From: an uncultured Acidobacteriota bacterium
GTDB taxonomy: Bacteria; Acidobacteriota; UBA6911
Direction of reading: 5' to 3'
Assembly (NCBI GenBank): GCA_963827655.1
Contig: CAWHCF010000019.1
Location: 1 to 64,000 of the forward strand
DNA: 64,000 nucleotides
A model generated the notes under the pieces. The model did no database searches. It had not been told where the DNA came from and worked only from the letters and a program-made list of their open reading frames with translations. Shown here in pieces: positions 7,725-64,000 of this stretch (its first letter is position 1; every line of letters begins with the position of its first letter). Made by a program: the position numbers and the translations under genes.

Positions 7725-9501
7725 CTAATGCGTAAGGCCACCAGGAAAGATTTTGGGCCAGAGGTCATCGACACGCCTTACCGTCTCAGGCAAGGGTTCG
7801 ACCAGCGGGGGAAACCACGCTTTGATCCGGCAGTCGAAAACCACGGGTGCAGACATGCTGACGTGGTATCGAAGCAGACGCGATTGATGGGCATAGATAT
7901 CGGCCGCCGGCTCGAGCCGCGTAAAGACGGTCCACAGAAAGGATGCCTCATCCCGCACGCAGTCTGCCGCATCATCCACCAGGATCACGAGACGGAACGG
8001 CCGGACTGCGTTCTCCTGCAGGAGATCCTCCACCGCGGTGTCGCCTTCGCGCCAGGGCGGGCCCTCGACTACCAGCACACCCGGTGCAAAAACAGCCTGC
8101 CGGCGAAAGACCGATTCTCGCAACATCGCCTGCGGTGTTTCTTGAAGCTGGAATTTCCTGTCACCCAGCCCAAGCAGAATTGCCTTGCTCCCCTGGTTCA
8201 GGGTCCGGGTCGTGTAATCCAGTGTATCTTGAGAGACGTTGGAAAAAATAAAGAGATCGGTGGCGAAATCGGCGCGCTCCAAAACATGGACGAGAAGGGA
8301 TCGGAACTTCTTCAGATCCAGACGAGCGTCGGTCACGATCAGAAACTTCGTCAGCGAGAGCTGACCTTCGCCCAGAATGCGCATCGCGGCCATGAACGCC
8401 TCGCGGCGGTATCGCTCGCGAACCACGGCGGAGGCCAGCGGGTGCACACCCGCGTCATCGTAGGCCCAGACATCCACAACGCCATTCATGACCAGCGGGA
8501 ACACCGGCGCGAAGAGTTCCTGAAGGTATTCTCCAATGTAGTGATCTTCCTGGCGCGGACGTCCCACAACTGTCGCCGGGAAGATCGCATCGCGGCGATG
8601 ATAGAGTTTGTGAACCTCGAAAACAGGGAACTCGTGGGCCAGGGAATAGTAGCCGTAGTGATCCCCAAAGGGTCCTTCCAGCCGCCGCACCCTGGGCGGT
8701 ATCTGTCCGGCCAGAAGAAAATCGGCTTCGGCCACGATCGGAAGCGAACTGATGCCAGGATCGAGAACGTGTGCCAGACGTCCATCCTGCAACAGCGACG
8801 CGAGGATCAGCTCAGGAACATTTTCCGGCAGCGGCGCGACGGCGGACATGATCAGGGCGGGTGGCCCACCCAGGAATAGATTCACCGGCAAGGGCCGGTT
8901 CTGCTTCTCCGCTTCATGGTAATGGAATCCGCCACCGCGGTGGATCTGGAAGTGCATCCCGGCTGTCCGATCATCGTAGATCTGGTTCCGGTACATGCCG
9001 AGATTCCCTTTTCCGGTGGCGGGGTGCTCCGTGTACACCAGAGGCAACGTAATGAAGGGCCCGCCATCCTGGGGCCAGTTCTGGATCTGCGGCAGCGACG
9101 TGAGTCGCGGCGGCTCAATGACCTTCTCGAGCACCGGACCTGTCCGGCGAGACGTCCTGCCCAACCGTATAGCCATTCTGGCCAGGTCGCGAAAGGACCA
9201 CAGCCTGGAGACGCTGGGGGGCATAAGGGTTTCCGCCGCCTCCACGACTCTCCTGAAAAAGCGGGCAGGCTCTTCTCCGAACGCCAGATCGATCCGGCGG
9301 CGCGTCCCGAAAAGATTGGTCGCCACGGGAAACTGAGTTCCCGTCACCCGCGTAAAAAGCAGGGCCGGGCCATGCGCTGCCACTACGCGCCGCTGGATCT
9401 CGGCCAGCTCGAGTCGCGGGTCAATCGGCTCATCGATTACGTGAAGCTCTTTCTCGCGTTTCAGGGTCTCGAGAAATGATCGGAGGTTCGGAGTGGCGCA
9501 T
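7725..9501 (-). CDS. UbiD-family decarboxylase (likely the futalosine-pathway menaquinone decarboxylase)
   Basis: DGGPFITLP, NLGMYR, EGPFGDHYGYY, VGRPRQED motifs. The frame extends upstream as LRSFLETLKREKELHVI; the ATG at 9501 is offset by one base. Confidence 0.88.
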
Positions 9502-9515
9502 CGGATGGAGGTAGT

Positions 9516-10292
9516 TCAGCGATTCTCACCCGGAAGGCGCGAAGACTCAATCAACATCTCGGACGAAAGAAGCGAGGCCGCGGCTTCGTCCACCATCCAG
9601 GTCAGTGAATCGGCTCTGGGCCGAATCTTCTTTGCTGGATAATCGTTGGTCGGGTCTTCCAGAACCTTTGCCAGCGCCGGAGCCTTGACTGCTCCTGCCG
9701 TCAGGAAAATCACCTTGCGCGCGCGTTGAGGATCCGGGGGGTCATTGAAATCCGAGTGCTCGCGAGCCCTGGTACTGAAACCGCGACGACGAGCCGATCC
9801 GTTCGTCCCAGACGGTGCCAGGAAAAAGCGAAGCCGTATGGCCGTCCTCGCCCATTCCCAGCAGAACCAGGTCGAAGCTCGGAATCTCGGCGCTGCCGGC
9901 GGCAGCGCGGCGGATCTCAGCTTCGTAACGGAGAGCCGCCTTTTCGGCGTCCTCCAGCTCGCCCAGGATGCGGTGGATCCGGTTTTCAGCCACCGGTATT
10001 CGTGAAAGGAGCGTCTGCCGGGCCATCCCGTAGTTACTTTCGGGGTGATCAGGAGGAACACAGCGCTCGTCTCCCCAAAAGAAATCGATCTTTTCCCAGT
10101 CAATTCGCTCGCGATAAGGAGAACGGGCCAAGGTTTCGTATATTGGTTTGGGTGTCTTCCCGCCGGTCAGGACGAAGATTGCGCTACCCCGCTTCCGCGA
10201 TCGCACTTTCCAGAGCGCAGCGCGATCTCTTCGGCGGCGGCGCGCGCCAGGGTCTCGACATCGGAGAAGATTTGAATGCTGGGTCGGTTCAT
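9516..10292 (-). CDS. pgl: 6-phosphogluconolactonase, frameshifted
   Basis: LTGGKTP, FFWGDERCVPPDHPESNY, FDLVLLGMGEDGHTASLFP, C-terminal WMVDEAAA, spread over several frames. Confidence 0.88.
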
Positions 10293-10336
10293 GTTTCCTG
10301 GCGTCTTTGCGTACTGGCGGTGAATTGCACCGCGCG

Positions 10337-11469
10337 CTACGTGAAGCTCCGTTCAAGGGCGAGGGCTTCGGCCAGCGCCTGGCTGAAAACCTTGATCCTG
10401 GCCGGAAAGTGAAAGCTCGTGGATGAGAAGCAGTGCCTCGTCCCGGGCTTCCTCGGTCACCGAGTGAACCAGCGCCGGGCCGAGCCCTTCGGTTCGGGCC
10501 GTTATGCAGGAGGAACCCTTTTCCCGAACTTACCGTGAAGGTGGGACCGTTCCTCGCGCGCAGAACGATCGAAGCGATGCCCGGAGCCTGGTTGAGCTCG
10601 GTGGGCGTGCCGCTAAAGCGGACCACGACTTCTCCGCTCGGGCCGTTCCAGCGAGAAATCCATTGGCCGTCTTGCCGTTCGGGCCGAAGTTCTCTGCCAG
10701 TTCAGGCGAGAGGCCAGCCATCCAGTCAACAGCAGACGTGCGGGTAGGAATGTTCGCCGGCGACGCCACGCTCCTGAGAATTTCCACTTCGCATATTTCG
10801 CGCGCATAGCGGCGCAGCGCCGGGGGATCGAAAAACTGCGCGATGAGGTCCCGCCAGGCGGTCAGACGAGACCAGTTCAGGTCGCGGACGCAAAGCCCCT
10901 TGGGAGCGTGGGTCAGCAGAGTCAGGAGGCGCCCCCGGTTGTGCGCGTCGTCTTTGGAGACATGGGAATCAACAATCAGCAAATCCGCAAAGTCAGCCAC
11001 TTTCACAGCCAGTTCCTGGTCCTCGGGTTTGAAGGATCTCCAGTAAAGAAAGACCGGCAAATCCGGAACCAGGAGCGAAACCAGGATGTTCGGCAGGTCC
11101 GCGACGGAGCTGCCGCGGGCGCCAACGGTAACTGTCTCGCAGCAGGTTGGGGACCCGCCCGCCGTGGAGACCAAGCAATGCGCATGAATCCACGCGCGCA
11201 TTCCGGAGGCGCCGGCGGAGCAGCGGCTCCTTGAATCTCATCTTCCCGGTACGCGATCAGCGAGCGGCAGGGTGCCACTCCGCGACCCGAGCCAGCAGTT
11301 CGGGAAGCAATTCAGATTCTGCCCGGTCGTGCGCAATGACAACCAGGTTACAGGAGCAGGCGCGGATCGCCGCCCTCTCGCTTTCGCCTTCCGACTTCCA
11401 CAAGGATGTCAGTTCCTGCTCGATCACGGCGGCATCGACCGCGACCGGCATTCCGAGGTTAGAAGTCAT
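10337..11469 (-). CDS. opcA: Glucose-6-phosphate dehydrogenase assembly protein OpcA, frameshifted
   Basis: IEQELTSLW..RACSCNLV, LLVPDLPVFLYW, IVDS, DLNWSRLTAWR; sits between zwf and pgl. Confidence 0.85.
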
Positions 11470-11471
11470 AG

Positions 11472-11593
11472 GATTTACGATTGACGATTGACGATTGACG
11501 ATTGGGAGACTGCGAATGATTGTTCAATCCAGGCGATCACGGGCATGGACCTGTCTGGCATTCATCGTCAATCGTCAATCGTAAATCGTCAAT
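11472..11593. repeat. Inverted heptamer element (GATTGAC)n...(AATCGTC)n
   Basis: Left arm 11472-11504 and right arm 11563-11593 fill the zwf-opcA spacer. Confidence 0.92.
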
Positions 11594-11595
11594 TG

Positions 11596-13139
11596 TTATA
11601 GTCGGCGCCAGCGGCGTCCGTCACGCTCCAAAAGTTTGTCGGCTTCAGCCGGGCCCCACGATCCTGAAGCATACTTAGGGATGGGTCCGCCGTCGGTCGA
11701 GGACCAGCGATCCAGAAAAGGTTGCACGAGAGACCAGGCGGCTTCTACCGAATCGATCCGGTCGAACAGTGTCGGATCTCCCAGCATGCAATCCAGGAAC
11801 AAGCGCTCGTAGGCGCTGGCCAGATGGACTCCGAAGGTGCTTCCATAGCGGAAGTCCATGTTTACTGGGCGTATGTTAATGAGATTGCCCGGGGAGCTTG
11901 GCGGCGAATTTCCACGTGATCCCTTCATTGGGCTGAATCCGCATCGCCAGAACGTTGGACTCCACCTCGTCCGTACCGGCCTGGCGAAAGATGAGATGTG
12001 GGGTCCGGTGAAATACAATGGCTATCTCCGTAGTGCGCTTGGCCAGGTTCTTTCCAGTGCGCACATAGAAGGGCACACCCGCCCACCGCCAGTTGTCGAT
12101 CGACGAAACGGAGCGCGGCGAAAGTTTCGGTCTTCGAATCGGGAGCAACGCCCTTCTCCTGGAGATACCCGGGCACGTGTTTACCTGCCGCAAATCCAGC
12201 ATCATACTGGCCGCGCACGGCAACGTGGTCAATCTCCTCGGGAGTGAAGGGACGAATCGACCGCAGGACTTTGGCCTTTTCGTCACGGACCGAGTTGGGG
12301 CCGAAATCCGGCGGAGGCTCCATTGCCACCAGCGTCAAGAGTTGCATCATGTGATTCTGAATCATGTCGCGCAGCGCGCCGGCTTCCTCGTAGTAGGCGC
12401 CCCGGCTTCCCACGCCGATGTTTTCGGCGGCCGTGATCTGGACGTGGTCCACGTAGTGGCGGTTCCAGATAGGTTCGAAATTGATGTTGGCAAAGCGAAA
12501 AACCAGAAGGTTCTGAACCGTTTCTTTCCCCAGGTAATGATCGATTCGATAGACCTGGTCTTCTGCGAAGACGGCGTTCACCTCCCGGTTCAGCGCGCGC
12601 GCGGATTGCAGATCGTGGCCGAACGGCTTCTCGATGATGATTCGCGCCCAGCCGGACCCATCCACGCCTTCCCGCGCCATTCCTGACGCTCCGAGATTTC
12701 GGACGATGTCGACATAGTCGCTGGGGGCGGTCGCAAGATAAAAGATCCGGTTCCCGCCGGTGCCGCGGCGAGCGTCGTACTCGGCCAGGCATTGCTTGAG
12801 ACGAGAGTAGCTGTCCGGTTCGTGGAAGTTAGCCGGTAGATAATGGATCCCCTGAGCGAACGGCTCCCAGGTCGCGGGATCGGAGGGGCCTCCTTCGCCA
12901 GCCTTGTCCACCCATTCGCGCAGCCTGGTTCGATATTCGTCGTCACTCAAGGGGGAGCGCGACAGCCCCAGGATCGAGAAGCCTCCGGGGATTAATCGCT
13001 TCCGGGAGAGATTGTAAAGTGCCGGCACAAGCTTGCGCCGCGTCAGGTCACCCGAGCCACCGAAGATGACCATGACGCATGGCTCCGGGCTGCGACTCAT
13101 TCGCCTGCCGTGACGTAGCGGATTGGACTCATCAACCAT
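11596..13139 (-). CDS. zwf: Glucose-6-phosphate 1-dehydrogenase, frameshifted near the 3' end
   Basis: [61 protein letters not shown]. Confidence 0.95.
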
Positions 13140-13242
13140 GATTCGCGATCCTTGGGAGCGGGTGCCTTGGCGGTGAGTGGATCGAGGCAAAGCCACCCCC
13201 GGCCCTCGCGTCAGAATGTGAAGCTATTTCTGCGCGAGCCCT

Positions 13243-39761: not shown

Positions 39762-39962
39762 GGGCGGTAAAGGGAACCGGACGGCTGTTCACGAGTGGAA
39801 GCGAAATCAGCCGCCAAGGCACGACGACAATGGAAATCACGACCGCGAACTCCTGGTACAAATTTCAATTCAGCAGAGCCGCTTTATGTGTCACAGTAAT
39901 TGTTTCGTGGAACATTGACTTATTTCGAAATAAACCCAGGGGTCAGCACAACTGAGGCAATC

Positions 39963-40797
39963 TTGAAGTTACGCGTCTCGCTGGTAGACTACTTGAACTC
40001 AGCCCCGCTCGGCTGGTCGTTTCTCCACGGTCCGCTTAAAGGGAAATTTGAGGTGGTTCGATCGTCCCCGGCAGAATGCGCCGATCAACTGGCCCGGGGC
40101 GAAGTGGATGTGGGCTTGATTCCCAGCATCGAGTATCAGCGCATCCCTGATCTTCGGATTATTCCAGGAATAGCTGTTGCCGCATCCAATCGGGTCCGCA
40201 GCGTCCTTCTGGTGCGGCCCAAGGGACGACCGGAGATTCGTTCCGTAGCTCTGGACACGAGTTCCCGGACCTCCGCAACCCTCGTGAGAATACTTCTCGA
40301 GCGCCGCATGGGACTGCGGCCTGAGCTTGTGCCGCACATGCCGGAAATAGATGAGATGCTGGGAAGATGCGACGCCGCCCTCATTATCGGAGATGCGGCT
40401 CTAAGACTCCCGGCCGACAAGTATGAGGTTCTCGATCTGGCACAAGCATGGATCGAATGGCAGAAGCGTGCCGTTCGTTTTTGCCTTCTGGGCCTGCCGC
40501 GCCGAATTGGAAGCAGACCTGGAGCTGGTTCCGATATTTCACGAAGCTCGATCCTGGGGGTTGGGAGCGCGCGAGGAAATTGCCGAAGTGTACGCCGGTA
40601 TTCTCAACCTGTCTGAGGCCTCTCTGCGGGAGTATCTGCACTTCAACGTTGACTATAACCTGGGTCGCCCCCACGTGGACGGGTTGACAAGGTTTTTCCA
40701 CCTCGCCTTCGAGATGAACGCCATTCCTGAACTTCGGCCGCTCGACTTCCTACCAATGATGTCGATTGACGATTTACGATTGACGATTGACGATTGA
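39963..40797 (+). CDS. mqnA: Chorismate dehydratase MqnA (futalosine pathway), one frameshift near 40470
   Basis: YLNSAPL, VRSVLL, SSRTS, ALIIGDAAL, DLAQAW, then PFVFAFWA in the next frame. Confidence 0.9.
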
Positions 40798-51985: not shown

Positions 51986-53662
51986 GTGATGGCCGTCCAG
52001 GAAAACCGCTACGTACGCGTCGTCAATGCTTCCCGCTCGATTCTCGTCCTGGGCGCGACGGTCGGCCTTGGCAGTTTCGCCTACTACAAAGCGCTGGGGT
52101 TGACTACCGCCCACTACGACGCCAAAGCTCACCTGGTGGTGGCGCGCCGGATCGTCGATTCACTCGAACCGGGGTACCTGCAGATGGGCATCCACTGGCT
52201 GCCACTCATCCACCTGCTCTACTTGCCGCTGGTACGCAGCGACAGCCAGTACCATTCCGCGTTCCTGCCAAGTCTGATCTCCGTCACTGCATTTGCTCTT
52301 TCGGGTTGGCTGGTCTTTCGGATTTCCCGCCGTTCGACCGGCTCAACCGCGGCCGGCGTCTTCGCCAGCCTTCTGTTGCTGGGGAACGCCAATCTCCAGT
52401 ACCTGCAAAGCTGCCCGTTGACGGAGCCGCTTTACATGATGCTGCTTCTGCTTGCCGTGGATGCGTTGACGCAATGGCGGGACGGTGAGAAACGGTCTCC
52501 TCCCTGGATGGTCGGGCTTTGGACAGCGCTAGGCGCTCTGTGCCGCTATGAAGGATGGCTGTTCGCTGCCGGAGTGATCCTGATTCTGGCCTTCGACTTC
52601 TGGACCGGTCAAACTCGCCGTGCCCAAGCAGCGAAATCAATGGCGTCAGTCGCCGTCTGTTTTGCCCTGCCGGTCCTGGTTCACTTCGCCTACCTTTATT
52701 CCCGCGTGGGCGACAGTTTCGTCCACAGGGTTGCTCGCGGAAATCCGGCTCCGTATGAAACGTTCCACCGCCCCTTTTTGTCACTGGCCTATCACCTGGG
52801 AGAACTCGGTCAGATTGCGGCTATTCTTCCGCTGTTGCTCGGGCTTGCCGGACTCGCCTGGTCACTGCGACCAGGCGGCCGGGCGGTCCGGCTCGCGCCG
52901 CTCTATTTGCTCTGGATTCCCTCGCTGGTCAACATCGCGGCCTTTTACTGGGGAATGCTCTATCGAGTCCGCTATTCCATTTTGCTTGTGCCGGCCATTG
53001 CCATATTCGGCAGTCTCCTGCTGGTTTCTCCCGCCGCGCTCCGCAGAACCTTCACGCTCGCGTGCGTAGCTGCCATGGCGCTTCCCTGGATCTCGTGGTA
53101 TTTCCCGCGAGAATGGAAATACCACCTGGTCTCCCCGGGGCCGGGCATTTTGATTGTTCCAGCGGTGGCCTTGATCTGCCTGCTTGCGTCTCGCGCCGGG
53201 GCAGGGGAGCGCTGGCCTTTTCTGGCCCTCTGTCTTCTCGCAATGCAGGTACCGGCGCTGTCAGGAGAGGATCGGCCGATTATTTCCGAGACGCTCGAAC
53301 ATAGATTCCTCGACCAGGAGAGAGAGGCGGTCTTGAGCCATCTCCAGTCCCGGTATGACGGCACACGCATCCTGATCGACATGGAGAAATCAGCGCCTCT
53401 GGTCTACGATTCGCGTCTTCCAGTGAAGGAATTCATCTACAGCGAAGGCGGCGGCTCCTATTGGCGGCAGGCCCTTGATTCGCCTTCGCGCATAGCCGGC
53501 TGGGTATGCGCTCAGAAAGGGGATGTGGTGTGGCATCGCCTCCAGGTTGACCCTCGGTGGGTCGACGGGTATTCTCTTGCAGTGAAAACGGAAACCTTTC
53601 TTTTATACCGGTTGCGAGCGGAAGCCCGGGAGACGTTGCTTCCGCCCAGGCGATCAGAGTGA
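51986..53662 (+). CDS. GT-C fold (ArnT/PMT-like) membrane glycosyltransferase
   Basis: Multi-TM, YDAKAH, WLPL, PLTEPL, RYEGW. Confidence 0.75.
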   Translation: MMAVQENRYVRVVNASRSILVLGATVGLGSFAYYKALGLTTAHYDAKAHLVVARRIVDSLEPGYLQMGIHWLPLIHLLYLPLVRSDSQYHSAFLPSLISVTAFALSGWLVFRISRRSTGSTAAGVFASLLLLGNANLQYLQSCPLTEPLYMMLLLLAVDALTQWRDGEKRSPPWMVGLWTALGALCRYEGWLFAAGVILILAFDFWTGQTRRAQAAKSMASVAVCFALPVLVHFAYLYSRVGDSFVHRVARGNPAPYETFHRPFLSLAYHLGELGQIAAILPLLLGLAGLAWSLRPGGRAVRLAPLYLLWIPSLVNIAAFYWGMLYRVRYSILLVPAIAIFGSLLLVSPAALRRTFTLACVAAMALPWISWYFPREWKYHLVSPGPGILIVPAVALICLLASRAGAGERWPFLALCLLAMQVPALSGEDRPIISETLEHRFLDQEREAVLSHLQSRYDGTRILIDMEKSAPLVYDSRLPVKEFIYSEGGGSYWRQALDSPSRIAGWVCAQKGDVVWHRLQVDPRWVDGYSLAVKTETFLLYRLRAEARETLLPPRRSE

Positions 53663-55415: not shown

Positions 55416-56386
55416 GAATACGAACACTCTCCGCCATTGCAGTTTGTCTCTTGCTCAGCCTCACGGCCTGGGGGAAGACTTCCCGCATCAAAAACGTCGG
55501 CGAGTACCCCAATTTCCTTGCTCTCAGCCCGGACGGCAGGATTGCCTATGTGACCTCGTTTGGAACCAGCGAGGTGCTTGCGGTCGATCTCGCCCAGAAG
55601 GCGGTGACGAAAAGCGCAGTCGTCGGAACGTCTCCCCTGGGCATCTCAGTGACGAGTGACGGAAAACTGGCAGTTATCGCATGCAAGGATTCCGGTACCG
55701 TGTCTTTCCTGAACCTGGACACTTTTCGTGTGGAGGCCGACATAAACACGAGTGGCGCGCCGAACGCCGTCGCCATCGACCCGAAGGGTTACCGCGCCTT
55801 CGTAACTAATTTCGGTAGAAGCAAGGAAGGCAATCTGCACATCGTGGACATTCGACAACGAAGCGTGGAGGCCAACGTGACGATGGGAATGGCGCCGATC
55901 GCCGTTGCGGTTTCGCCGGTCACTGATTTGGTCTATGTCGTCAATGGCGGGTCCAACGAAGTCTGGGTGGTGAATCCGGAGAAGAAAGCGGTAACCACCA
56001 AGATCACGGTTGGCGAGGCCCCTGATGGAATCGCCATTACGCCCGACGGTAATCGCATCTTCGTCAGCAACAGCCGCTCGAACGATGTTTCCGTGATCGA
56101 TACTCAACTGGGAAAGGTAGTCGTCACAATACCGGTGGGCAAGAGACCCTTCGGAATAACCGTGAGTCCGGATGGCAAGCGCGTCTTCGTGGTTAACACA
56201 GAGTCTCGCACGGTCTCGATCCTTCCGGCGGATCTTACCAGCCTCCAGGCGCAGTCCTTCAATGTGGAAAAGGGACCGGTCGATATCGAGGTAGCGCCCG
56301 ACAATCGGACGGTGCTGGTTGTGAACGAACAATCCCATTCGCTCACCGTTGCCGACATGCCTCAAACAGCAGGCGGTAAGCAGTAA
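55412..56386 (+). CDS. YncE/YVTN beta-propeller repeat secreted protein
   Basis: Signal peptide and repeated VG..P..IA.SPDG..V.V.N units. Confidence 0.9.
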   Translation: MRIRTLSAIAVCLLLSLTAWGKTSRIKNVGEYPNFLALSPDGRIAYVTSFGTSEVLAVDLAQKAVTKSAVVGTSPLGISVTSDGKLAVIACKDSGTVSFLNLDTFRVEADINTSGAPNAVAIDPKGYRAFVTNFGRSKEGNLHIVDIRQRSVEANVTMGMAPIAVAVSPVTDLVYVVNGGSNEVWVVNPEKKAVTTKITVGEAPDGIAITPDGNRIFVSNSRSNDVSVIDTQLGKVVVTIPVGKRPFGITVSPDGKRVFVVNTESRTVSILPADLTSLQAQSFNVEKGPVDIEVAPDNRTVLVVNEQSHSLTVADMPQTAGGKQ

Positions 56387-56406
56387 GCAGAATCAACTGC
56401 TTACTG
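56367..56406. repeat. Inverted heptamer element (GCRGTAA)n...(TTACTG)
   Basis: cagcaggcggtaagcagtaagcag ... ctgcttactg; the arms hold the stop codons of both convergent genes. Confidence 0.8.
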
Positions 56407-57348
56407 TTCTTGAACAAACCAGTCGACGAATCTACGGATTCCCGTTCTGAATCCGGTCGTTGGCTGATACCCGAGGATACGGGTGGCGCGGCTGACGTCC
56501 GCAAAAGTTATCGACATGTCACCCGGCTGCGGAGGTAAGAATTTCAGCCGGGCTTTCTTCTGCAGGGCATTCTCGAGTTCGGAAACAACTTCGAGCAGCG
56601 TGACCGTCTGCGATTCTCCCAGATTGAGGATCTCGAAAGCAGGATTGAGCCGGAGGGCGGCCACGATTCCGGAAACAATGTCATCGACATACGTATAGTC
56701 CCTGCGCGTGCCGCCGTCGCCAAAAACGGGGACCTCTTTGTCCTCCCAGATCAATCGAGCGAACTTATGAATTGCCATTTCGGGCCGCTGGCGCGGCCCA
56801 TAGACGGTGAAAAAGCGAAGACAGGTGAACCTCATGGCATAGTTGTGCGCGTACGTGCGGCAGAGCAGCTCTCCGGCCCGCTTGGTCGCAGCATAGGGAG
56901 ATACTGGCGTGTCCACGGGATCGTCTTCAGTGAACGGAACTCGTGAGCTCGACCCGTAGACCGAGGACGAGGAGCCGAAGATGAAGTTCTGAACTTCGAA
57001 TTCCCGGGCAAGCTCCAGGATGTTTACGGTGCCGGTTACATTCACATCAGTGTAGATTCTTGGGTTTTCGAGCGAAGGCCGAACTCCGGCCCAGGCCGCA
57101 AGGTGAACAATGGCCTCGGGCCGGCTCTCTTTGACCGCGGCGCGCAGGTTATTCCAATCCAGAAGATCGACTTCATGCACCGCCGCCGGGCCTGATCTCT
57201 GAAGGTCGCGCACGTTGCGGCGTTTCAGATCGGGGTTGTAAAAGTGGTTGAAGTTATCGAGCAGGGCGATTTCATGCTTGAGCTTCTGGAGTCTTGACGC
57301 CAGGTGATACCCTATGAACCCGGCCCCGCCGGTAATTAACACCCGCAT
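56401..57348 (-). CDS. NAD-dependent epimerase (UDP-glucuronate 4-epimerase-like)
   Basis: TGGAGFIG, HLAAWAGVRPS, SSSSVYG, YAATK, RFFTVYGP. Confidence 0.92.
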   Translation of the reverse strand: MRVLITGGAGFIGYHLASRLQKLKHEIALLDNFNHFYNPDLKRRNVRDLQRSGPAAVHEVDLLDWNNLRAAVKESRPEAIVHLAAWAGVRPSLENPRIYTDVNVTGTVNILELAREFEVQNFIFGSSSSVYGSSSRVPFTEDDPVDTPVSPYAATKRAGELLCRTYAHNYAMRFTCLRFFTVYGPRQRPEMAIHKFARLIWEDKEVPVFGDGGTRRDYTYVDDIVSGIVAALRLNPAFEILNLGESQTVTLLEVVSELENALQKKARLKFLPPQPGDMSITFADVSRATRILGYQPTTGFRTGIRRFVDWFVQEQ

Positions 57349-57488
57349 TAGAATGTATCCTCTCTGTATGTGAAGAAACCGCTCGCCGCGTTAAACCCAA
57401 GGGAAAAACCGGAAGTTTCATCGGCTGCGCCAAAGTTCAGAGCCTCTGAATCCTCCTGGCGAAAAACAGGTATGTTATCATCCGGCGC

Positions 57489-58118
57489 ATGCTGCGCGTC
57501 GGATTAACCGGCAATATTGCGTCCGGAAAAAGTCACGCTACGCAAGTCTTCGCCGAGCTCGGGGCCTACATAATTGATGCGGATGTGATTGCCCACGGGT
57601 TGCTGGCGCCCGGCACGAGTACCTACGACGGAGTGGTTGCGGCATTTGGAGGTCAGATCCTTAACCCGGATGCAACCATCAATCGTCGAAAGTTGGGCGA
57701 GATAGTTTTTCAGGACGAGGCGAAAAGAGCTGAACTGAATAGCCTGGTGCATCCGGAGGTACGTGCCCAGGTCGTCCGCCGCATCGGGGAACTGGAAGAC
57801 TCCGCGCAAAATGGCATCATCATCATAGACGCAGCCCTTATGGTGGAGTCGGGGTTTTTCCGCACTTTCGATCGCCTCATCGTGGTCCACTGCAGCCCCA
57901 GTTTGCAGCTATCCCGGATTGTGAACCGCGACGGCCTGACGCCCGCCCAGGCTCGCGCGCGCATGGCTGCGCAGATGCCCGTGGAGGAGAAGATCAAACA
58001 TGCCCACTACACCATAGAGACCTCCGGTACGTTTCGACAGACTCGCGAGCAAATCGAGTCCATCTACCGGGACCTGCTATTGCTGAACCTGAAGACAAGG
58101 AAACCGGGTGATCCGTAG
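57489..58118 (+). CDS. coaE: Dephospho-CoA kinase
   Basis: GLTGNIASGKS, DAD, LVHP, QMP. Confidence 0.95.
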   Translation: MLRVGLTGNIASGKSHATQVFAELGAYIIDADVIAHGLLAPGTSTYDGVVAAFGGQILNPDATINRRKLGEIVFQDEAKRAELNSLVHPEVRAQVVRRIGELEDSAQNGIIIIDAALMVESGFFRTFDRLIVVHCSPSLQLSRIVNRDGLTPAQARARMAAQMPVEEKIKHAHYTIETSGTFRQTREQIESIYRDLLLLNLKTRKPGDP

Positions 58119-58140
58119 GGGCAAAAATCTCCTTGCGATG

Positions 58141-58166
58141 CCTTAGCGTCTTCGAGTCTTGGCGGT
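58141..58166. repeat. Nonamer-type repeat arm
   Basis: ccttagcgtcttcgagtcttggcggt. Confidence 0.6.
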
Positions 58167-58279
58167 AAACGTACGCCATTGGTTGACATTCTGCGAAGCG
58201 GTATGTTACTAGAAAGCTTTCCTAAGCCTACGGTTCAGGGTTTAGATCACCTCACCAGTTTTGCAGCAAACTATAAACT

Positions 58280-60337
58280 ATGCTGACCTATGTTTGGTTA
58301 ATTCCTATCCTCCCGCTGGCAGGAGCGGCCCTCGGCGGTTTGCTAGGGCTGATCCATCTCCGAAGAACAGGACAGCGACTGGCCAAGCCGATCGTCTCTG
58401 CCATCGCTTTAGCCTCCGTCGGCCTGGCCTTCCTCCTGTCGGCGATTGTCGTCTTCCAGCTTTTCTGGGTAGAGCATAAAGAGATCTACATCACGGATCT
58501 TTTCACCTGGCTTGATGCCGGCTCGGTTCGCCTGGCCGATGGCAGTCTCGCTTCGTTCGAGATCCCCTGGGGATTCCAGCTGGATCCTCTCTCCGCCGTC
58601 ATGATTCTGGTGGTGACCGGAGTCGGGTTTCTGATCCACGTTTACTCGACGGGATACATGGCGGACGATCCCGGATACTACCGCTTCTTTGCCTACCTCA
58701 ATCTCTTCATGTTCGCCATGCTGACGCTGGTTCTGGCGAACAACTTCGTTTTAATGTTTGTCGGGTGGGAAGGGGTCGGACTCTGTTCTTATCTCTTGAT
58801 AGGGTTTTATCTGGACCGAAAGAGCGCAGGCGACGCCGGCAAAAAGGCCTTCGTCGTGAACAGGATCGGTGACGCCGGATTTATCCTCGGCATGATCCTT
58901 ATCTTCGTCCACTTCGGGTCACTGAGCTATGAAGAAGTCTTCAACAAAGCGGCCGCTTTGCCGGTAGAGGGGGAGCCCGGCTTCATCTTCTGGGCGACGG
59001 TCTGTCTCTTTATCGGCGCCGCGGGGAAGAGCGCCCAGATTCCGTTGTACGTCTGGCTTCCCGATGCAATGGAGGGCCCCACCCCTGTCAGCGCGTTGAT
59101 TCACGCCGCCACCATGGTGACGGCGGGAGTGTACATGGTATGCCGCTGCAACGCCCTCTTCAGCCGCTCGCCCGACGCAATGCTGATCGTGGCGACCGTG
59201 GGAGCGGCTACCGCCCTGTTTGCCGCCACGATCGGGTTCGCTCAGACCGACATCAAACGGGTCCTGGCCTACTCAACCGTGAGCCAGCTGGGTTACATGA
59301 TGGCCGCCCTGGGAGCGGGAGCCTTCATCGCCGGCGTTTTCCACCTGATGACCCACGCATTCTTCAAGGCGCTCCTCTTCCTCGGATCGGGCTCGGTAAT
59401 CCTGGCCATGCACCATGAACAGGACATGACCAGAATGGGGGGACTTCGCAAGTACCTCCCGTGGACATATCGCACCATGCTTGTCGGCACTCTGGCCATT
59501 GCTGGAGTTCCAGGGCTGGCCGGTTTTTTCAGCAAGGACGAGATCCTCTGGAAAGTCTGGAGCAACGGCCATCCTGTTATCTGGTTTGTACTCTGGCTGG
59601 GAGCCGGCATGACGGCGTTCTACATGTTTCGCCTCATCTTCCTGACCTTCTGGGGCCAGGAAAGGATGAGCGAACACACCAAGCATCATATACACGAGTC
59701 ACCCAACAGTATCGTTCTGCCTTTGATCATTCTGGCCGTCCTCTCGATTGTCGGGGGATGGATCGGACTGCCTGCGTGGTTGGGAACAAACTATTTCGAC
59801 CGATTCCTGGAACCTGTGCTCCGGATACCCGAAGGAGCTTTGCACCACGAGGCGGCGCATTCCGTCGCTCAGGAGGTGCTGTTCACCGCCCTGTCGGTCG
59901 GGATTGCCGGCTTAGGAATCTTCCTCGCGTACCGCTTTTATGTCGTCGATCCGGAAGCCCCGTCGCGGATAACCGCGCGCATCAGGGGACTCTACAATCT
60001 TGTGTATCGGAAGTATTACGTGGATGAAATCTATGACGCCCTCTTTGTGAATCGCACCAAGGATCTGGCAAACGTTTGCGCCTTCGTGGACTCCACGTTT
60101 GTGGACGGCGCCGTGAATGCCACAGCCGCGCTGACGCGCCTGACTGCGACGTTGTCGAGGATTTTCGACACCTATGTGGTCGACGGTCTGGTCAACTTGA
60201 TCGGCTGGATCAACATGGTTTTGAATCGAGTTTTAACCTCTCTTCAGACCGGGCTCATCCAGCGCTACGCACTGGGAGCGGTCTTTGGGATTGTTTTCTT
60301 TATTCTGATTTACTTCCGCTTTCTGGTTGTGTCTTGA
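58280..60337 (+). CDS. nuoL: NADH-quinone oxidoreductase subunit L with extended lateral helix
   Basis: GWEGVGLCSYLLIGF, NRIGD, KSAQIPLYVWLPDAMEGPTPVSALIHAATMV, HAFFKALLFL. Confidence 0.96.
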   Translation: MLTYVWLIPILPLAGAALGGLLGLIHLRRTGQRLAKPIVSAIALASVGLAFLLSAIVVFQLFWVEHKEIYITDLFTWLDAGSVRLADGSLASFEIPWGFQLDPLSAVMILVVTGVGFLIHVYSTGYMADDPGYYRFFAYLNLFMFAMLTLVLANNFVLMFVGWEGVGLCSYLLIGFYLDRKSAGDAGKKAFVVNRIGDAGFILGMILIFVHFGSLSYEEVFNKAAALPVEGEPGFIFWATVCLFIGAAGKSAQIPLYVWLPDAMEGPTPVSALIHAATMVTAGVYMVCRCNALFSRSPDAMLIVATVGAATALFAATIGFAQTDIKRVLAYSTVSQLGYMMAALGAGAFIAGVFHLMTHAFFKALLFLGSGSVILAMHHEQDMTRMGGLRKYLPWTYRTMLVGTLAIAGVPGLAGFFSKDEILWKVWSNGHPVIWFVLWLGAGMTAFYMFRLIFLTFWGQERMSEHTKHHIHESPNSIVLPLIILAVLSIVGGWIGLPAWLGTNYFDRFLEPVLRIPEGALHHEAAHSVAQEVLFTALSVGIAGLGIFLAYRFYVVDPEAPSRITARIRGLYNLVYRKYYVDEIYDALFVNRTKDLANVCAFVDSTFVDGAVNATAALTRLTATLSRIFDTYVVDGLVNLIGWINMVLNRVLTSLQTGLIQRYALGAVFGIVFFILIYFRFLVVS

Positions 60338-60393
60338 GACGCCGCGGCGGGACGGACCGTGGCACGCCAGATTCGAATCCGGGGAGTTAGTCT

Positions 60394-61989
60394 ATGGATT
60401 TCTTCATGGCCAACATACTGAACATCGTCTGCTACTTCCCCCTGGTGGGGATGGTGGCGATCATGTTCATAAGGCGCGAAAACGAGGCTGCGATCAAGTG
60501 GGTGGCCAACATAACGGGCTTGATCGGCTTCCTGATTTCGATTCCCCTGATTACTTCTTTCAACGATCCGCGCTACATCGATCAATCGACTAATTTTCGA
60601 TTTGTTTTCGAGCGCGAGTGGATCCAGCTGATAGGCGCGAAGTACAAATTCGGCATCGACGGGATAAGCCTTCTGCTGGTGCTGCTCACCACGCTTCTGG
60701 GCTCTATCGCCATTCTTTCCTCGTGGAATGCGATCACCGAGCGGTTGAAGGAGTACTACGCTTTCATTCTGCTGCTGCAGACCGGGATGCTGGGTGTCTT
60801 CCTGGCGCTCGACTTTCTGGTCTTTTACGTATTCTGGGAAATCATGCTGGTTCCCATGTATTTCCTGATCGGCGTCTGGGGAGGACCGAGAAAGTTATAT
60901 GCGGCCATAAAATTCTTTCTCTATACCCTGGCGGGCTCAGTGCTGATGCTGGTCGGGATGCTGGCCATTTACTTCTATCAATACAACACCACCGGAGTTT
61001 ATTCGTTTGACATTCTGGCGTTTCAAAAACTCGGGTTTCCCCAGACGATCCAGTACTGGGTTTTTCTGGCGTTCTTTGTCGGATTCGCGATCAAGGTTCC
61101 AATGTTTCCCTTCCATACCTGGCTGCCGGATGCCCACGTCGAGGCTCCGACTGCCGGCTCGGTGATTCTCGCCGGCGTTCTCCTGAAAATGGGGACCTAC
61201 GGCTTCGTCCGATTCAGCCTGCCCATGTTCCCCTGGGCCACGATGCACTTTCTCCAGCCGATGCTCATCCTGTCGTTAATAGGGATCATCTATGGCGCTC
61301 TCGTGGCGATGATGCAGAAGGACATGAAGTCGCTGGTGGCTTATTCGTCGGTGAGCCACCTTGGATTCGTGATGCTCGGGGTGTTTGCGGCCACTCCTGT
61401 AGCCCTCCAGGGCGGCGTCCTTCAAATGATCAACCACGGTATCTCAACCGGGGCGCTGTTCCTGATCGTGGGAGTCATATACGAGCGCCGCCATACCCGA
61501 TTGATCTCGGAATATGGCGGGTTGAGTCACATCATGCCCGTCTATGCCACGGTGTTTCTCATCATGACCCTGAGCTCCATAGGGATGCCTGGCCTGAACG
61601 GGTTCATTGGTGAATTCTTCATCCTGCAAGGAACTTTCGCGGCGCCCGGCCTGTGGATCTACGCCGCCATTGCGGTGGTGGGCATCGTTCTGGGCGCCGC
61701 CTACATGCTGTGGCTCTACCAGCGAGTGATGTTCGGGAAACTCGAGAATCCTCTCAACCAGAGCCTCCCCGACTTGAACTGGCGGGAGATGGTAACCTTC
61801 GTCCCGCTGATCATCCTGGCATTCTGGATTGGAATCTACCCGTCCTACTTCACAAAGTTCCTGGATCAGCCGGTCAATGCTATCGTGGAGCGCGTGAGGA
61901 CGGATTACTTCAAAGCAGGGCGCGCACAGAATCTTCCGCTCCTCCCTGTACAGGGCCAACAACAGCAAGCAGTAGGCGGTAGGCAGTAA
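60394..61989 (+). CDS. nuoM: NADH-quinone oxidoreductase subunit M
   Basis: GIDGIS, FWEIMLVPMY, FHTWLPDAHVEAPT, LLKMGTYG, AYSSVSHLG. Confidence 0.96.
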   Translation: MDFFMANILNIVCYFPLVGMVAIMFIRRENEAAIKWVANITGLIGFLISIPLITSFNDPRYIDQSTNFRFVFEREWIQLIGAKYKFGIDGISLLLVLLTTLLGSIAILSSWNAITERLKEYYAFILLLQTGMLGVFLALDFLVFYVFWEIMLVPMYFLIGVWGGPRKLYAAIKFFLYTLAGSVLMLVGMLAIYFYQYNTTGVYSFDILAFQKLGFPQTIQYWVFLAFFVGFAIKVPMFPFHTWLPDAHVEAPTAGSVILAGVLLKMGTYGFVRFSLPMFPWATMHFLQPMLILSLIGIIYGALVAMMQKDMKSLVAYSSVSHLGFVMLGVFAATPVALQGGVLQMINHGISTGALFLIVGVIYERRHTRLISEYGGLSHIMPVYATVFLIMTLSSIGMPGLNGFIGEFFILQGTFAAPGLWIYAAIAVVGIVLGAAYMLWLYQRVMFGKLENPLNQSLPDLNWREMVTFVPLIILAFWIGIYPSYFTKFLDQPVNAIVERVRTDYFKAGRAQNLPLLPVQGQQQQAVGGRQ

Positions 61990-62025
61990 GCAGAGGGTGC
62001 CTGCTTACTGCTGCCTACTGCCTAT
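61962..62025. repeat. Inverted heptamer element (GCAGTAG)n...(CTACTGC)n
   Basis: gcagtaggcggtaggcagtaagcag ... ctgcttactgctgcctactgcct; contains the nuoM stop. Confidence 0.9.
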
Positions 62026-62365
62026 TCCGACAGGCGGCGATCCTCAATTGCTTCCGGGCATTCCCCTCCGCGACGAAGCGTCGGGCGATTCCTCTTCTCC
62101 TGGCGAGTTTCCTTGTCGAGCTTCTGGAATCGATCCTTGATTTGGTGAAATTCCGTCGAATCGACCTTCATGCAATGTTCAATTCGAGGGTGAATGAAGA
62201 TGTCCCTGAAGGAGCACCTGGAGCACTCTGCCCAGGGCTTCATGAGAGAATTGGCTGAAACCGCAATGGCAGGCAGGTAGCCCGCCTTTCACGGTGAGGG
62301 CGCTTTTGTAGGTGTAGGGAAAAAGAAGGTTTTATATTTGCCGGTCCGATCGCACAAGGACCATT

Positions 62366-62850
62366 TCACTTGCCCGATACCATACGTGCCAGGCTCCGGC
62401 CGAGTAAGGTAAATCGCAGGATTGTCCTGATTTTAGAGTTCTTGATACCGTTTATCTTCATCAACAGAGACTCTTCGATTATTCCCAGCACAAAACCTGC
62501 GGTCGGTGTCGCGATAAGATCGACCGGCGAGATAGGCACATTGCCGATAGACGCTTCTCCCACAAGGCCGAGCTCGAACTGGGTCGAGTAGAATACACCC
62601 ACCAGAACGCCTGCTCCCGGGAACCGCCATTGATCCGAGCCAGGTGGTACGTAGTGGCTCCCTGAACCGGGTGCCCTGCGAAATTCGTCAAGAAGCTATC
62701 GCCGTCGAAAAACCCGGCGGGCCTGCTGCGGAACGTTTCCAGATAGCCTCCGACAAATGGCCCCTGGAGACCGTGTCGCGTCTTTGATTGGAACGCGACT
62801 CTGGCTGCGTTTTGAAGCATGAGGAAGCGGAAGGAATCTGCGGTTGGTCG
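62366..62850 (-). pseudogene. DUF3943-like membrane protein, frameshifted and apparently 5'-truncated
   Basis: DGDSFLTNFAGHPVQGA..ARING, then YSTQFE.G..EASIGN..DLIATPTAG in another frame. Confidence 0.6.
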
Positions 62851-62854
62851 CAAA

Positions 62855-62973
62855 TACCGCGATCGGAATGATTTTACCCTTAAAGAGATCGTTGGTGCCA
62901 TCGGGGGCCGGACGGGCTTGATGGCCCGTCCGCACATGAACCGGGCGAGTTTTGCGACGGTCTCTGATGACCC
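62855..62973 (+). repeat. Dispersed ~120-bp repeat, copy 2 (IS-end-like)
   Basis: Aligns by eye with 20261-20379; ends gagttttgcgacggtctc. Confidence 0.8.
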
Positions 62974-63041
62974 GCACAAGCCAAAGAGCTTCCGGTCAAC
63001 CCCGGGTACGATCGAATTATCCCATTCAGCTCCCGCTCCTA

Positions 63042-63070
63042 TTGACATTCTGTATGGGATCCGTTATCTT
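63042..63070 (+). promoter_or_regulatory. Sigma-70-like promoter of padR
   Basis: TTGACA-N17-TATCTT just upstream of the ATG; the imperfect palindrome cctacagactctctatatg may be the operator. Confidence 0.55.
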
Positions 63071-63086
63071 CCTACAGACTCTCTAT

Positions 63087-63431
63087 ATGAGCACGAAAAG
63101 ACCCCCCATCCAGACCAATCTTCTCCAAGGGACGCTCGACCTGCTGGTCATGAAGGCGCTCGCGCTGGGAGAAATGCACGGGCTGGGGATTTCGCGACGC
63201 ATCGAGCAGATGACCAAGGGGACCTTTCAGGTGAAACCCGGCTCTCTTTTCCCCGCCTTGCACCGGATGGAGCAAGCCGGCTGGCTCACTTCCTCGTGGG
63301 GGGAATCCGAGAATAACCGCCGGGCCAAGTACTATCGGTTGACCGGGACGGGCCGCCGCCGATTCGAGGCCCAGGCCGAAAATTGGGGCAGGATCTCGCT
63401 CGCGATCGCGAGCGCTCTCGAGACGACTTAG
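63087..63431 (+). CDS. PadR-family transcriptional regulator (acidobacterial type)
   Basis: LLQGTLDLLVMKAL, HGLGI, GSLFPALHRME, SENNRRAKYYRLT. Confidence 0.95.
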   Translation: MSTKRPPIQTNLLQGTLDLLVMKALALGEMHGLGISRRIEQMTKGTFQVKPGSLFPALHRMEQAGWLTSSWGESENNRRAKYYRLTGTGRRRFEAQAENWGRISLAIASALETT

Positions 63432-63443
63432 GCGGAGGTGTAC

Positions 63444-64000
63444 GTGTCGGTGGTGAGCTTCTTCTCCAGCCTGGCGCACAATCTCTTTCGCTGGACCAGG
63501 GTCGAACAGGAACTGGATCAGGAAGTCCGGGCCTATGTCGAATTGCTGGCCGATGAGAAAATCCAGGCCGGCGTCAGCCCGGAGGAAGCTCATCGCCAGG
63601 CGCTGGTCGAGTTCGGTGGTGTCGAGCAAGTCAAAGAACGGGTTCGAGACGGACGCATCGGTAACCTGATCGGGAGCTTGTTCAAGGACGCCCGTTATGC
63701 GCTGCGCAGCCTCGCCGGCAATCCCGCTTTCACGGCAGCCGCACTGCTTTCTCTCGCACTCGGCATAGGCGCCAACGCCGCCCTGTTCAGCTTCGTAAAT
63801 GCGATCCTCCTCCGCCCTTTGCCATACCTGGAACCCGAGCGACTGGTCCGAGTGACGGGCTTCTATCCCAAAGGCGCCGTAGTCGAGCTGCAGCAGCAAT
63901 GCCAGTTGATGGATGTGGCCGGTTTTACTGCGGATTCGGAGTTTAATCTTTCCTGGCGCGGAGAAACCGTGCACCTCGCGGGAAATTCCGTTTCCGCGAG
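63444..64000 (+). CDS. ABC-type permease (acidobacterial duplicated orphan permease), truncated by the window end
   Basis: GGAGGT RBS; manual translation [64 protein letters not shown]. Confidence 0.92.

Follow-up and report, generated by a model that had tools for sequence, protein, structure and literature searches.

A separately encoded nuoL-nuoM pair with a two-module NuoL lateral helix as the probable distal pump module of a mosaic, NuoEFG-less complex I in Acidobacteriota

Results

The coaE-nuoL-nuoM locus

The window analysed here is a stretch of 64,000 nucleotides from an uncultured Acidobacteriota bacterium (lineage UBA6911; assembly GCA_963827655.1, contig CAWHCF010000019.1, here C19, positions 1 to 64,000 of the forward strand), and our subject is a pair of genes in it, nuoL and nuoM, that encode antiporter-like subunits L and M of complex I. 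Three genes follow one another on the + strand: coaE (57489-58118), a dephospho-CoA kinase gene (PF01121 at 2.9e-51; TIGR00152), which is a conserved 5' neighbour and no part of the enzyme; nuoL (58280-60337), which begins 161 nucleotides further on and encodes a protein of 685 amino acids with a two-module lateral helix (NF005141; PF00662, PF00361 and PF01010); and nuoM (60394-61989), which is separated from nuoL by 56 nucleotides and encodes a protein of 531 amino acids (TIGR01972 and NF004499). Both products score above the curated cut-offs of complex I families, NuoL with 754.7 bits against 556 (NF005141) and 741.1 against 407.5 (TIGR01974), NuoM with 612 against 263.8 (TIGR01972) and 593.7 against 585 (NF004499), and the MrpA and MrpD families match the two proteins well below their own cut-offs. 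Solved NuoM chains, such as 8qby_M (2.5e-136), align with the window NuoM end to end. Among 28 aligned NuoL sequences, the charged residues E164, K250, H275, K363, K419 and D420 (numbering of the window NuoL) are invariant; they probably correspond to E144, K229, H254, K342, K399 and D400 of the proton path in E. coli NuoL.

An initial annotation, made from the letters of the stretch alone, had stated that nuoL follows coaE with no nuoK before it and that no nuoN comes after nuoM. Our analysis bears this out: the open reading frames (ORFs) of the window include neither a nuoK 5' of nuoL nor a nuoN 3' of nuoM; and a tblastn search of 56301-64000 for remnants of nuoN, nuoK and nuoJ, with queries from related operons of lineage X (our term for the 11-gene operons typical of this acidobacterial class), returned only paralogous matches to nuoL and nuoM. 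Synteny with relatives stops directly after nuoM, and no gene is conserved 3' of nuoM in either of two relatives, G011 and G007 (G, C and L numbers denote genomes, contigs and loci of our data set), so that no extra subunit gene is hidden there. Rfam gave no match at E <= 0.1 in 56000-64000.

An extra 26-residue module in the lateral helix of NuoL

The lateral helix of the window NuoL contains two copies of a 26-residue unit. Module 1 (D604-F629; 60089-60166, +) contains VDGAVN and is the extra copy relative to a one-module NuoL; module 2 (D630-L655; 60167-60244, +) contains VDGLVN and is followed by LQTG and, at about residues 661-684, by the C-terminal anchor helix. The two motifs had already been picked out in the initial annotation and lie where it had placed them: VDGAVN (V608-N613) starts at nucleotide 60101 and VDGLVN (V634-N639) at nucleotide 60179, at a distance of 78 nucleotides, or 26 codons.

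Three comparisons substantiate the insertion of about 26 residues relative to canonical NuoL that had been read from this repeat. When the C-terminal 145 residues of the window NuoL are aligned with cyanobacterial NdhF1 (6hum_F), residues 1-63 correspond to NdhF1 542-604 and residues 89-137 to NdhF1 604-652, the stretch with which module 2 aligns, and 25 residues of NuoL are left without a counterpart; a phmmer search against solved chains likewise yields two overlapping stretches of NuoL that both align from NdhF1 residue 604/605 onward. Compared with the second NuoL of the same genome (642 amino acids), the window NuoL has about 24 extra residues in the lateral helix and another 18 in two N-terminal loops. 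A profile of the 26-residue unit matches at residues 603-627 (31.2 bits) and again at residues 629-653 (37.7 bits). The lateral helix of the window NuoL thus has a net insertion of 25-26 residues.

Of the module residues, D630, D635, V638 and N639 do not vary across the 28 aligned sequences, and D604, D609 and G610 hardly do. An AlphaFold2 model of NuoL built on the 28-row alignment (mean predicted local distance difference test score, pLDDT, 81) has helices at residues 578-631, 638-655 and 661-684, with pLDDT < 50 over residues 614-665, so that the insert is predicted to be helical and the geometry is uninformative.

Two modules and a single nuoM in other operons

We searched 114 NuoL rows, taken from all fetched loci, with the profile of the 26-residue unit. 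(The unpublished genome G039 is included in these counts, as it is in the long-NuoL search, the reading of loci and the Y-type NuoN search described below; no conclusion depends on it.) Two modules were found in 31 rows (27 without four loci that were fetched twice), one in 61 and none in 22, the last being divergent types of Proteobacteria and Bacteroidota that escape the profile. Within the set, none of the 55 rows beside nuoE has a two-module NuoL, and a two-module NuoL never shares its locus with more than one nuoM.

Compact 11-gene operons that combine a two-module NuoL with one nuoM, and have no nuoE nearby, occur in Acidobacteriota (L011, G043), in Binatia (L015, L019, L028, L030, L035) and in Melioribacteraceae (L072). 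The closed genome G043 (99% complete) has six PF00361 genes, which make up two sets of L, M and N; G003 and G004 have six each, and G005, the completeness of which is not given, has three. Since operons with a single nuoM, including one in the closed genome G043 and one in G005, encode a two-module NuoL, the module does not depend on the presence of a second nuoM. An apparent 'double NuoM' of 1086 amino acids at L029 proved to be an artefact of ORF calling, with NuoM only at residues 585-1080.

A second complex I operon that lacks nuoL and nuoM

The assembly (8.18 Mb, 90% complete) contains six genes that match PF00361: nuoL and nuoM of the window; L, M and N genes on contig C52; and one gene on contig C43, for a NuoN paralogue that shares 40% identity with the C52 NuoN. 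Each of L, M and N is thus encoded twice, in a genome with two enzymes. A 14-subunit set is complete without the window pair, with A, C, G and H on C6, B and D on C51, F on C49, and E, J, K, L, M and N on C52, where nuoE, J and K precede the short L (642 amino acids), M and N; this locates the main set, with its own short NuoL, its NuoM and its NuoN, for which the initial annotation had suggested a search. The genes of this set are spread over at least four loci, scattered nuo genes being a habit of this genome.

The C43 gene belongs to an operon with the order nuoA-B-C-D-H-I-J-K-N, without L and M, in which nuoN begins 4 nucleotides after nuoK. No nuoE, nuoF or nuoG is present in this operon, the matches to these genes falling on C52, C23, C49 and C6. 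Given that the NuoEFG-less enzyme of C43 is the only one short of L and M, the window pair would be needed there for a normal three-pump enzyme. Contigs of the metatranscriptome run X15 match pieces of the C43 operon at 90-99%, which is no demonstration of transcription. A VitK2_biosynth gene of menaquinone biosynthesis (PF02621; window 39900-40616, +) and a UbiD-family gene (window 7725-9383, -) hint at menaquinone as the quinone served by these enzymes.

Different ancestry of L-M and of A-K and N

Besides lineage X, we distinguish a lineage Y, a different 11-gene lineage, nearest to Melioribacteraceae and Binatia. Trees were built under LG+G4, with no mixture model, and the reduced trees used as outgroups 15 hand-picked loci of the 48 available 14-subunit loci. 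In the NuoM tree, an analysis that the initial annotation had proposed, the window NuoM and its family orthologues group with X-type M (support 100/100), and the M subunits of Binatia and Melioribacteraceae, of lineage Y, form a separate clade (100/100); forcing the window NuoM to group with Y costs 73.9 log-likelihood units and is rejected by the approximately unbiased (AU) test (p 2.8e-5). The C43 NuoN and its family orthologues fall into one clade with Y-type N (100/100), and forcing the C43 NuoN to group with X costs 69.0 log-likelihood units and is rejected as well (AU p 7.4e-4). When A, B, C, D, H, I, J and K are concatenated (1604 columns), C43 and three family operons group with Y (100/100) and X falls outside, and the window NuoL groups with X in a quick tree (support 100 by the Shimodaira-Hasegawa-like approximate likelihood ratio test, SH-aLRT). 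Y-type NuoN (>= 66% identity) was found in none of 16 non-family genomes of the class, and the family yielded no Y-type NuoL. Taken together, the trees show L-M and A-K/N to differ in ancestry, the enzyme being apparently a mosaic with L and M from X, and A-K and N from Y. Both lineages have the two-module helix; the two-module helix is a trait of the clade and no evidence for a second NuoM here.

A family-wide split between L-M and the remaining genes

The family set comprises 25 genomes, the genome of the window and 24 others that were searched. A long NuoL with 72-78% identity to that of the window is present in most of these others, and the order coaE-nuoL-nuoM is found in all 16 family genomes with a readable upstream side (window included), one more locus being cut by a contig end. 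This recurrence indicates that the split is old and fixed, and that the locus is no misassembly. At the other end of the split, the junction of nuoK and nuoN with its 4-nucleotide gap is present in the five family genomes examined (our own, G011, G007, G022 and G024). The orthologous long NuoL lies within I-J-K-L-M in six of six genomes of other families of the class, and the closed genome G043 and the locus L011 have the compact, whole ABCDHIJKLMN operon.

In G022, a third complex I set is likewise split, with H-I-J-K-N (locus L156, contig C2) at one place and a lone pair of L (634 amino acids) and M (locus L155, contig C124) at another; the same type of set is contiguous in G045 and G014. 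Together with the split of the window, this amounts to at least two events within the family in which L-M was excised from its place between K and N.

Of the 25 family genomes, 17 have both the long NuoL and the Y-type NuoN, and five have neither (G006, G020, G023, G025 and G029). These five come from a single genus, with a completeness of 96-99%, and four of them retain L and N of the 14-subunit type. The pair occurs without Y-type genes in G010, where nuoL has one frameshift and no nuoD of any type was found; this assembly is probably gappy and the case uninformative. Y-type genes occur without the pair in G014 (81% complete) and in G017 (84% complete). This pattern of presence and absence would fit, if weakly, a functional link between the nuoL-nuoM pair and the Y-type operon.

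A conserved promoter-like site upstream of nuoL

A promoter-like site (TTGACA, 16-18 nucleotides, TGnTAnTA) is the sole conserved element of the coaE-nuoL spacer, which is otherwise unalignable. In the window it lies at 58183-58212 (+) and consists of TTGACA (58183-58188), a spacer of 18 nucleotides, and TGT-TACTAG (58204-58212), of the extended -10 type. The pattern TTGAC(A/T) with (T/G)G(T/C/G)TA(C/G)(T/G) is in register in 13 of 14 aligned family loci, and the fourteenth has a similar site further downstream. A scan of 57300-62600 for consensus promoters and terminators returned 0 promoter-like sites, so that the conserved site at 58183-58212 was not flagged, and 8 terminator-like sites against 5.0 +/- 2.3 in shuffled sequences, which is uninformative. 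Judged by its conservation, the site may be the promoter of nuoL-nuoM.

Discussion

We propose, with a probability of about 0.7, that nuoL-nuoM encodes the distal pump module of an 11-subunit, NuoEFG-less, complex I-like quinone reductase of mosaic ancestry, the other nine genes of which are nuoA-B-C-D-H-I-J-K-N on C43, and that the pair is transcribed separately from these. According to this proposal, nuoL-nuoM would be transcribed alone from a conserved σ70-like promoter downstream of coaE; L and M would join N, K, J, A and H through the usual contacts, with M beside N; the lateral helix of NuoL, together with its last transmembrane helix, would clamp the row of pumps; and X-type L-M would physically assemble with Y-type subunits. 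The electron donor would probably not be NADH, and may be ferredoxin. The initial annotation had suggested a separately regulated module that combines with subunits from a main nuo operon. What it said of the module agrees with our results, as the pair stands alone, has a conserved promoter-like site and has its likely partner subunits elsewhere in the genome; the partner, however, appears to be the NuoEFG-less operon on C43 and not the NADH-linked set.

Several points weigh against the proposed 11-subunit enzyme. By our estimate, 26 extra residues would extend over about 39 Å if fully helical, which is about the width of one pump subunit, and a three-pump model does not explain them. The groups compared in the AU tests were defined once the trees were known. 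The co-occurrence of the pair with the Y-type operon is weak evidence because the five losses, all in one genus, may be a single event. Finally, the partner operon on C43 contains two frameshifts, one in nuoD at a run of seven C near C43:112250 and one in nuoH near C43:110755, and a loss private to this strain is one way to account for them.

Nevertheless, the two frameshifts look like assembly errors. Contigs of three public runs, some of them near-identical to the assembly, have a 1-base insertion at the nuoD site and a 1-base deletion at the nuoH site; and two genes on the - strand of the window are split as well, probably by indel errors of the assembly, namely zwf (glucose-6-phosphate dehydrogenase; 11925-13196 and 11596-12018) and pgl (6-phosphogluconolactonase; 9742-10626 and 9516-10103), both in the region 9516-13196. 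One added C restores the frame of nuoD, as we checked, and restoration of nuoH is expected, though this was not checked letter by letter. The relatives G011, G007, G022 and G024 have an intact nuoD of 373 amino acids; in G011, G022 and G024, nuoH and nuoI are separate ORFs, and in G007 they are overlapping ORFs. The nuoH frameshift also yields a false 'NuoH-NuoI fusion' ORF of 522 amino acids (C43 110050-112791; locus L008 12047-14770).

The extra module calls for comparison with the '2M' complex I, which was reportedly described by Chadwick, Hemp, Fischer and Orphan in 2018 (ISME J 12:2668). The available excerpts of later papers characterise this enzyme by a NuoL whose C-terminal amphipathic helix has an insertion of about 26 residues, and by a second NuoM in the gene cassette (PMC9040806, PMC7419157, PMC11636273). 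The window pair resembles it in the NuoL insertion, and its C43 partner operon also has no NuoEFG genes; however, there is one nuoM in our locus and none in the C43 operon, and four antiporter-like subunits per complex are not available, given that six PF00361 genes serve two complexes both here and in the closed genome G043. An alignment with canonical NuoL and with 2M NuoL had been suggested in the initial annotation: the canonical half of this comparison gave the net insertion, whereas a bona fide 2M NuoL is absent from the loci fetched. A four-pump arrangement is present in the acidobacterial genome G034 (locus L162, 10481-19501), in the order J-K-(492-amino-acid MrpD-like)-(600-amino-acid NuoL-like)-M-N-A-B-C-D; we considered this cluster as a 2M comparator and rejected it, as it is without the helix module and resembles the rhizobial 'green' type.

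An extra helix module in an enzyme with one nuoM was already known from the work of Yu et al. in 2022, the available text of which places the same insertion in Complex_I_1 and Complex_I_2 of 'Ca. Manganitrophaceae', with canonical gene content and order, and leaves open whether an extra pump is possible or the enzymes are in transition (PMC9040806). Those enzymes are encoded, according to the same text, in single Nitrospirota clusters, whereas here L-M is split off, has its own promoter-like site and belongs to another lineage than A-K and N. The compact nuoABCDHIJKLMN operons are similar to the system described here in that they have a two-module NuoL, one nuoM and no nuoEFG with the partner genes, and the window L and M are 58-64% and 68-77% identical to those of the compact acidobacterial operons; yet each of these is one operon of one origin, whereas here there are two pieces (on C19 and C43) of two origins, throughout the family. 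Unclustered nuo genes are common in many clades, as stated in the available part of PMC12361115, and the 14-subunit set of this genome, with its scattered loci, is a further instance. An L-M unit of separate ancestry, however, is not described in the accessible portions of that paper or of PMC9040806. What is new here is the family-wide split at the boundary between the distal (L, M) and the proximal (N, K, J, A, H) subunits, together with the different ancestry of both parts.

The resemblance to 2M enzymes had led the initial annotation to suggest that the pair may switch complex I to a form with a higher H+/e- ratio. Applied to this genome, the pair would replace the short NuoL of the 14-subunit enzyme and add a pump, so that the row would read L(long)-M(window)-M(C52)-N(C52) and the '2M' enzyme with its four pumps would be facultative. 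Much of what this model presupposes is in place: the helix is one 26-residue module longer than that of the genome's own short NuoL; a complete 14-subunit set with short L, M and N is present; the pair has its own promoter-like site; the geometry would suit four pumps; and the insertion is real, the window nuoM is one of two and the locus is no misassembly. The switch to a four-pump form is disfavoured nonetheless, and we hold it to be quite improbable: under this model, the nuoABCDHIJK-N operon would have no L or M to complete it; single-M operons normally encode a two-module helix, as does the one in a closed genome where each complex has one M; the pair is missing together with the Y-type operon from five genomes, of which four retain the 14-subunit-type L and N; and the insertion-bearing clusters in the available text of PMC9040806 are canonical. 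Alternatively, four pumps might stand in a row on the subunits of C43, with one NuoM in two adjacent places or with the C52 NuoM borrowed. In favour of such an arrangement, the extra module is conserved, and its length equals that of the insertion that the excerpts of PMC9040806 report for 2M enzymes; but a spare nuoM is present in no genome examined, and Yu et al., in those excerpts, leave the same question open. We therefore consider it unlikely. No likelier is its combination with a particular history, in which the portable L-M of one lineage took the place of the L-M in a NuoEFG-less enzyme of another lineage that had been acquired horizontally, and the resulting hybrid has a row of four pump positions, for which its one NuoM serves twice or the NuoM of the NADH-linked enzyme is borrowed.

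The pair could also act on its own, as an Mrp-like cation/proton antiporter, and leave nuoABCDHIJK-N to form a one-pump enzyme. L and M are homologous to MrpA and MrpD, and one-pump relatives such as Ech-type enzymes exist. We nevertheless regard this as very improbable, since both proteins score as NuoL and NuoM equivalogs and not as Mrp subunits; the lateral helix and the anchor helix, both conserved, make sense only as a clamp over further subunits; and the presence or absence of the pair tracks that of the Y-type operon.

If the proposed hybrid enzyme of X-type L-M and Y-type subunits is active, it amounts to a natural experiment in which the distal pump module proves to be swappable between lineages of complex I, and the swap would bear on the assembly of the membrane arm and on how coupling is transmitted along it. 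Deletion or tagging of L-M could leave all other nuo genes intact, and the family offers organisms, some of them possibly cultivable soil Acidobacteriota, in which to ask what sits under the second helix module.

Other features of the window

Upstream of coaE-nuoL-nuoM lie folD, a gene for a beta-propeller protein and an epimerase gene; downstream of nuoM, a gap of 489 nucleotides is followed by an ORF on the minus strand with a DUF3943 domain. An ORF of 558 amino acids at 51986-53662 (+) has no Pfam match at the default cut-off, and is 52% identical over 544 residues to a syntenic ORF in L010.

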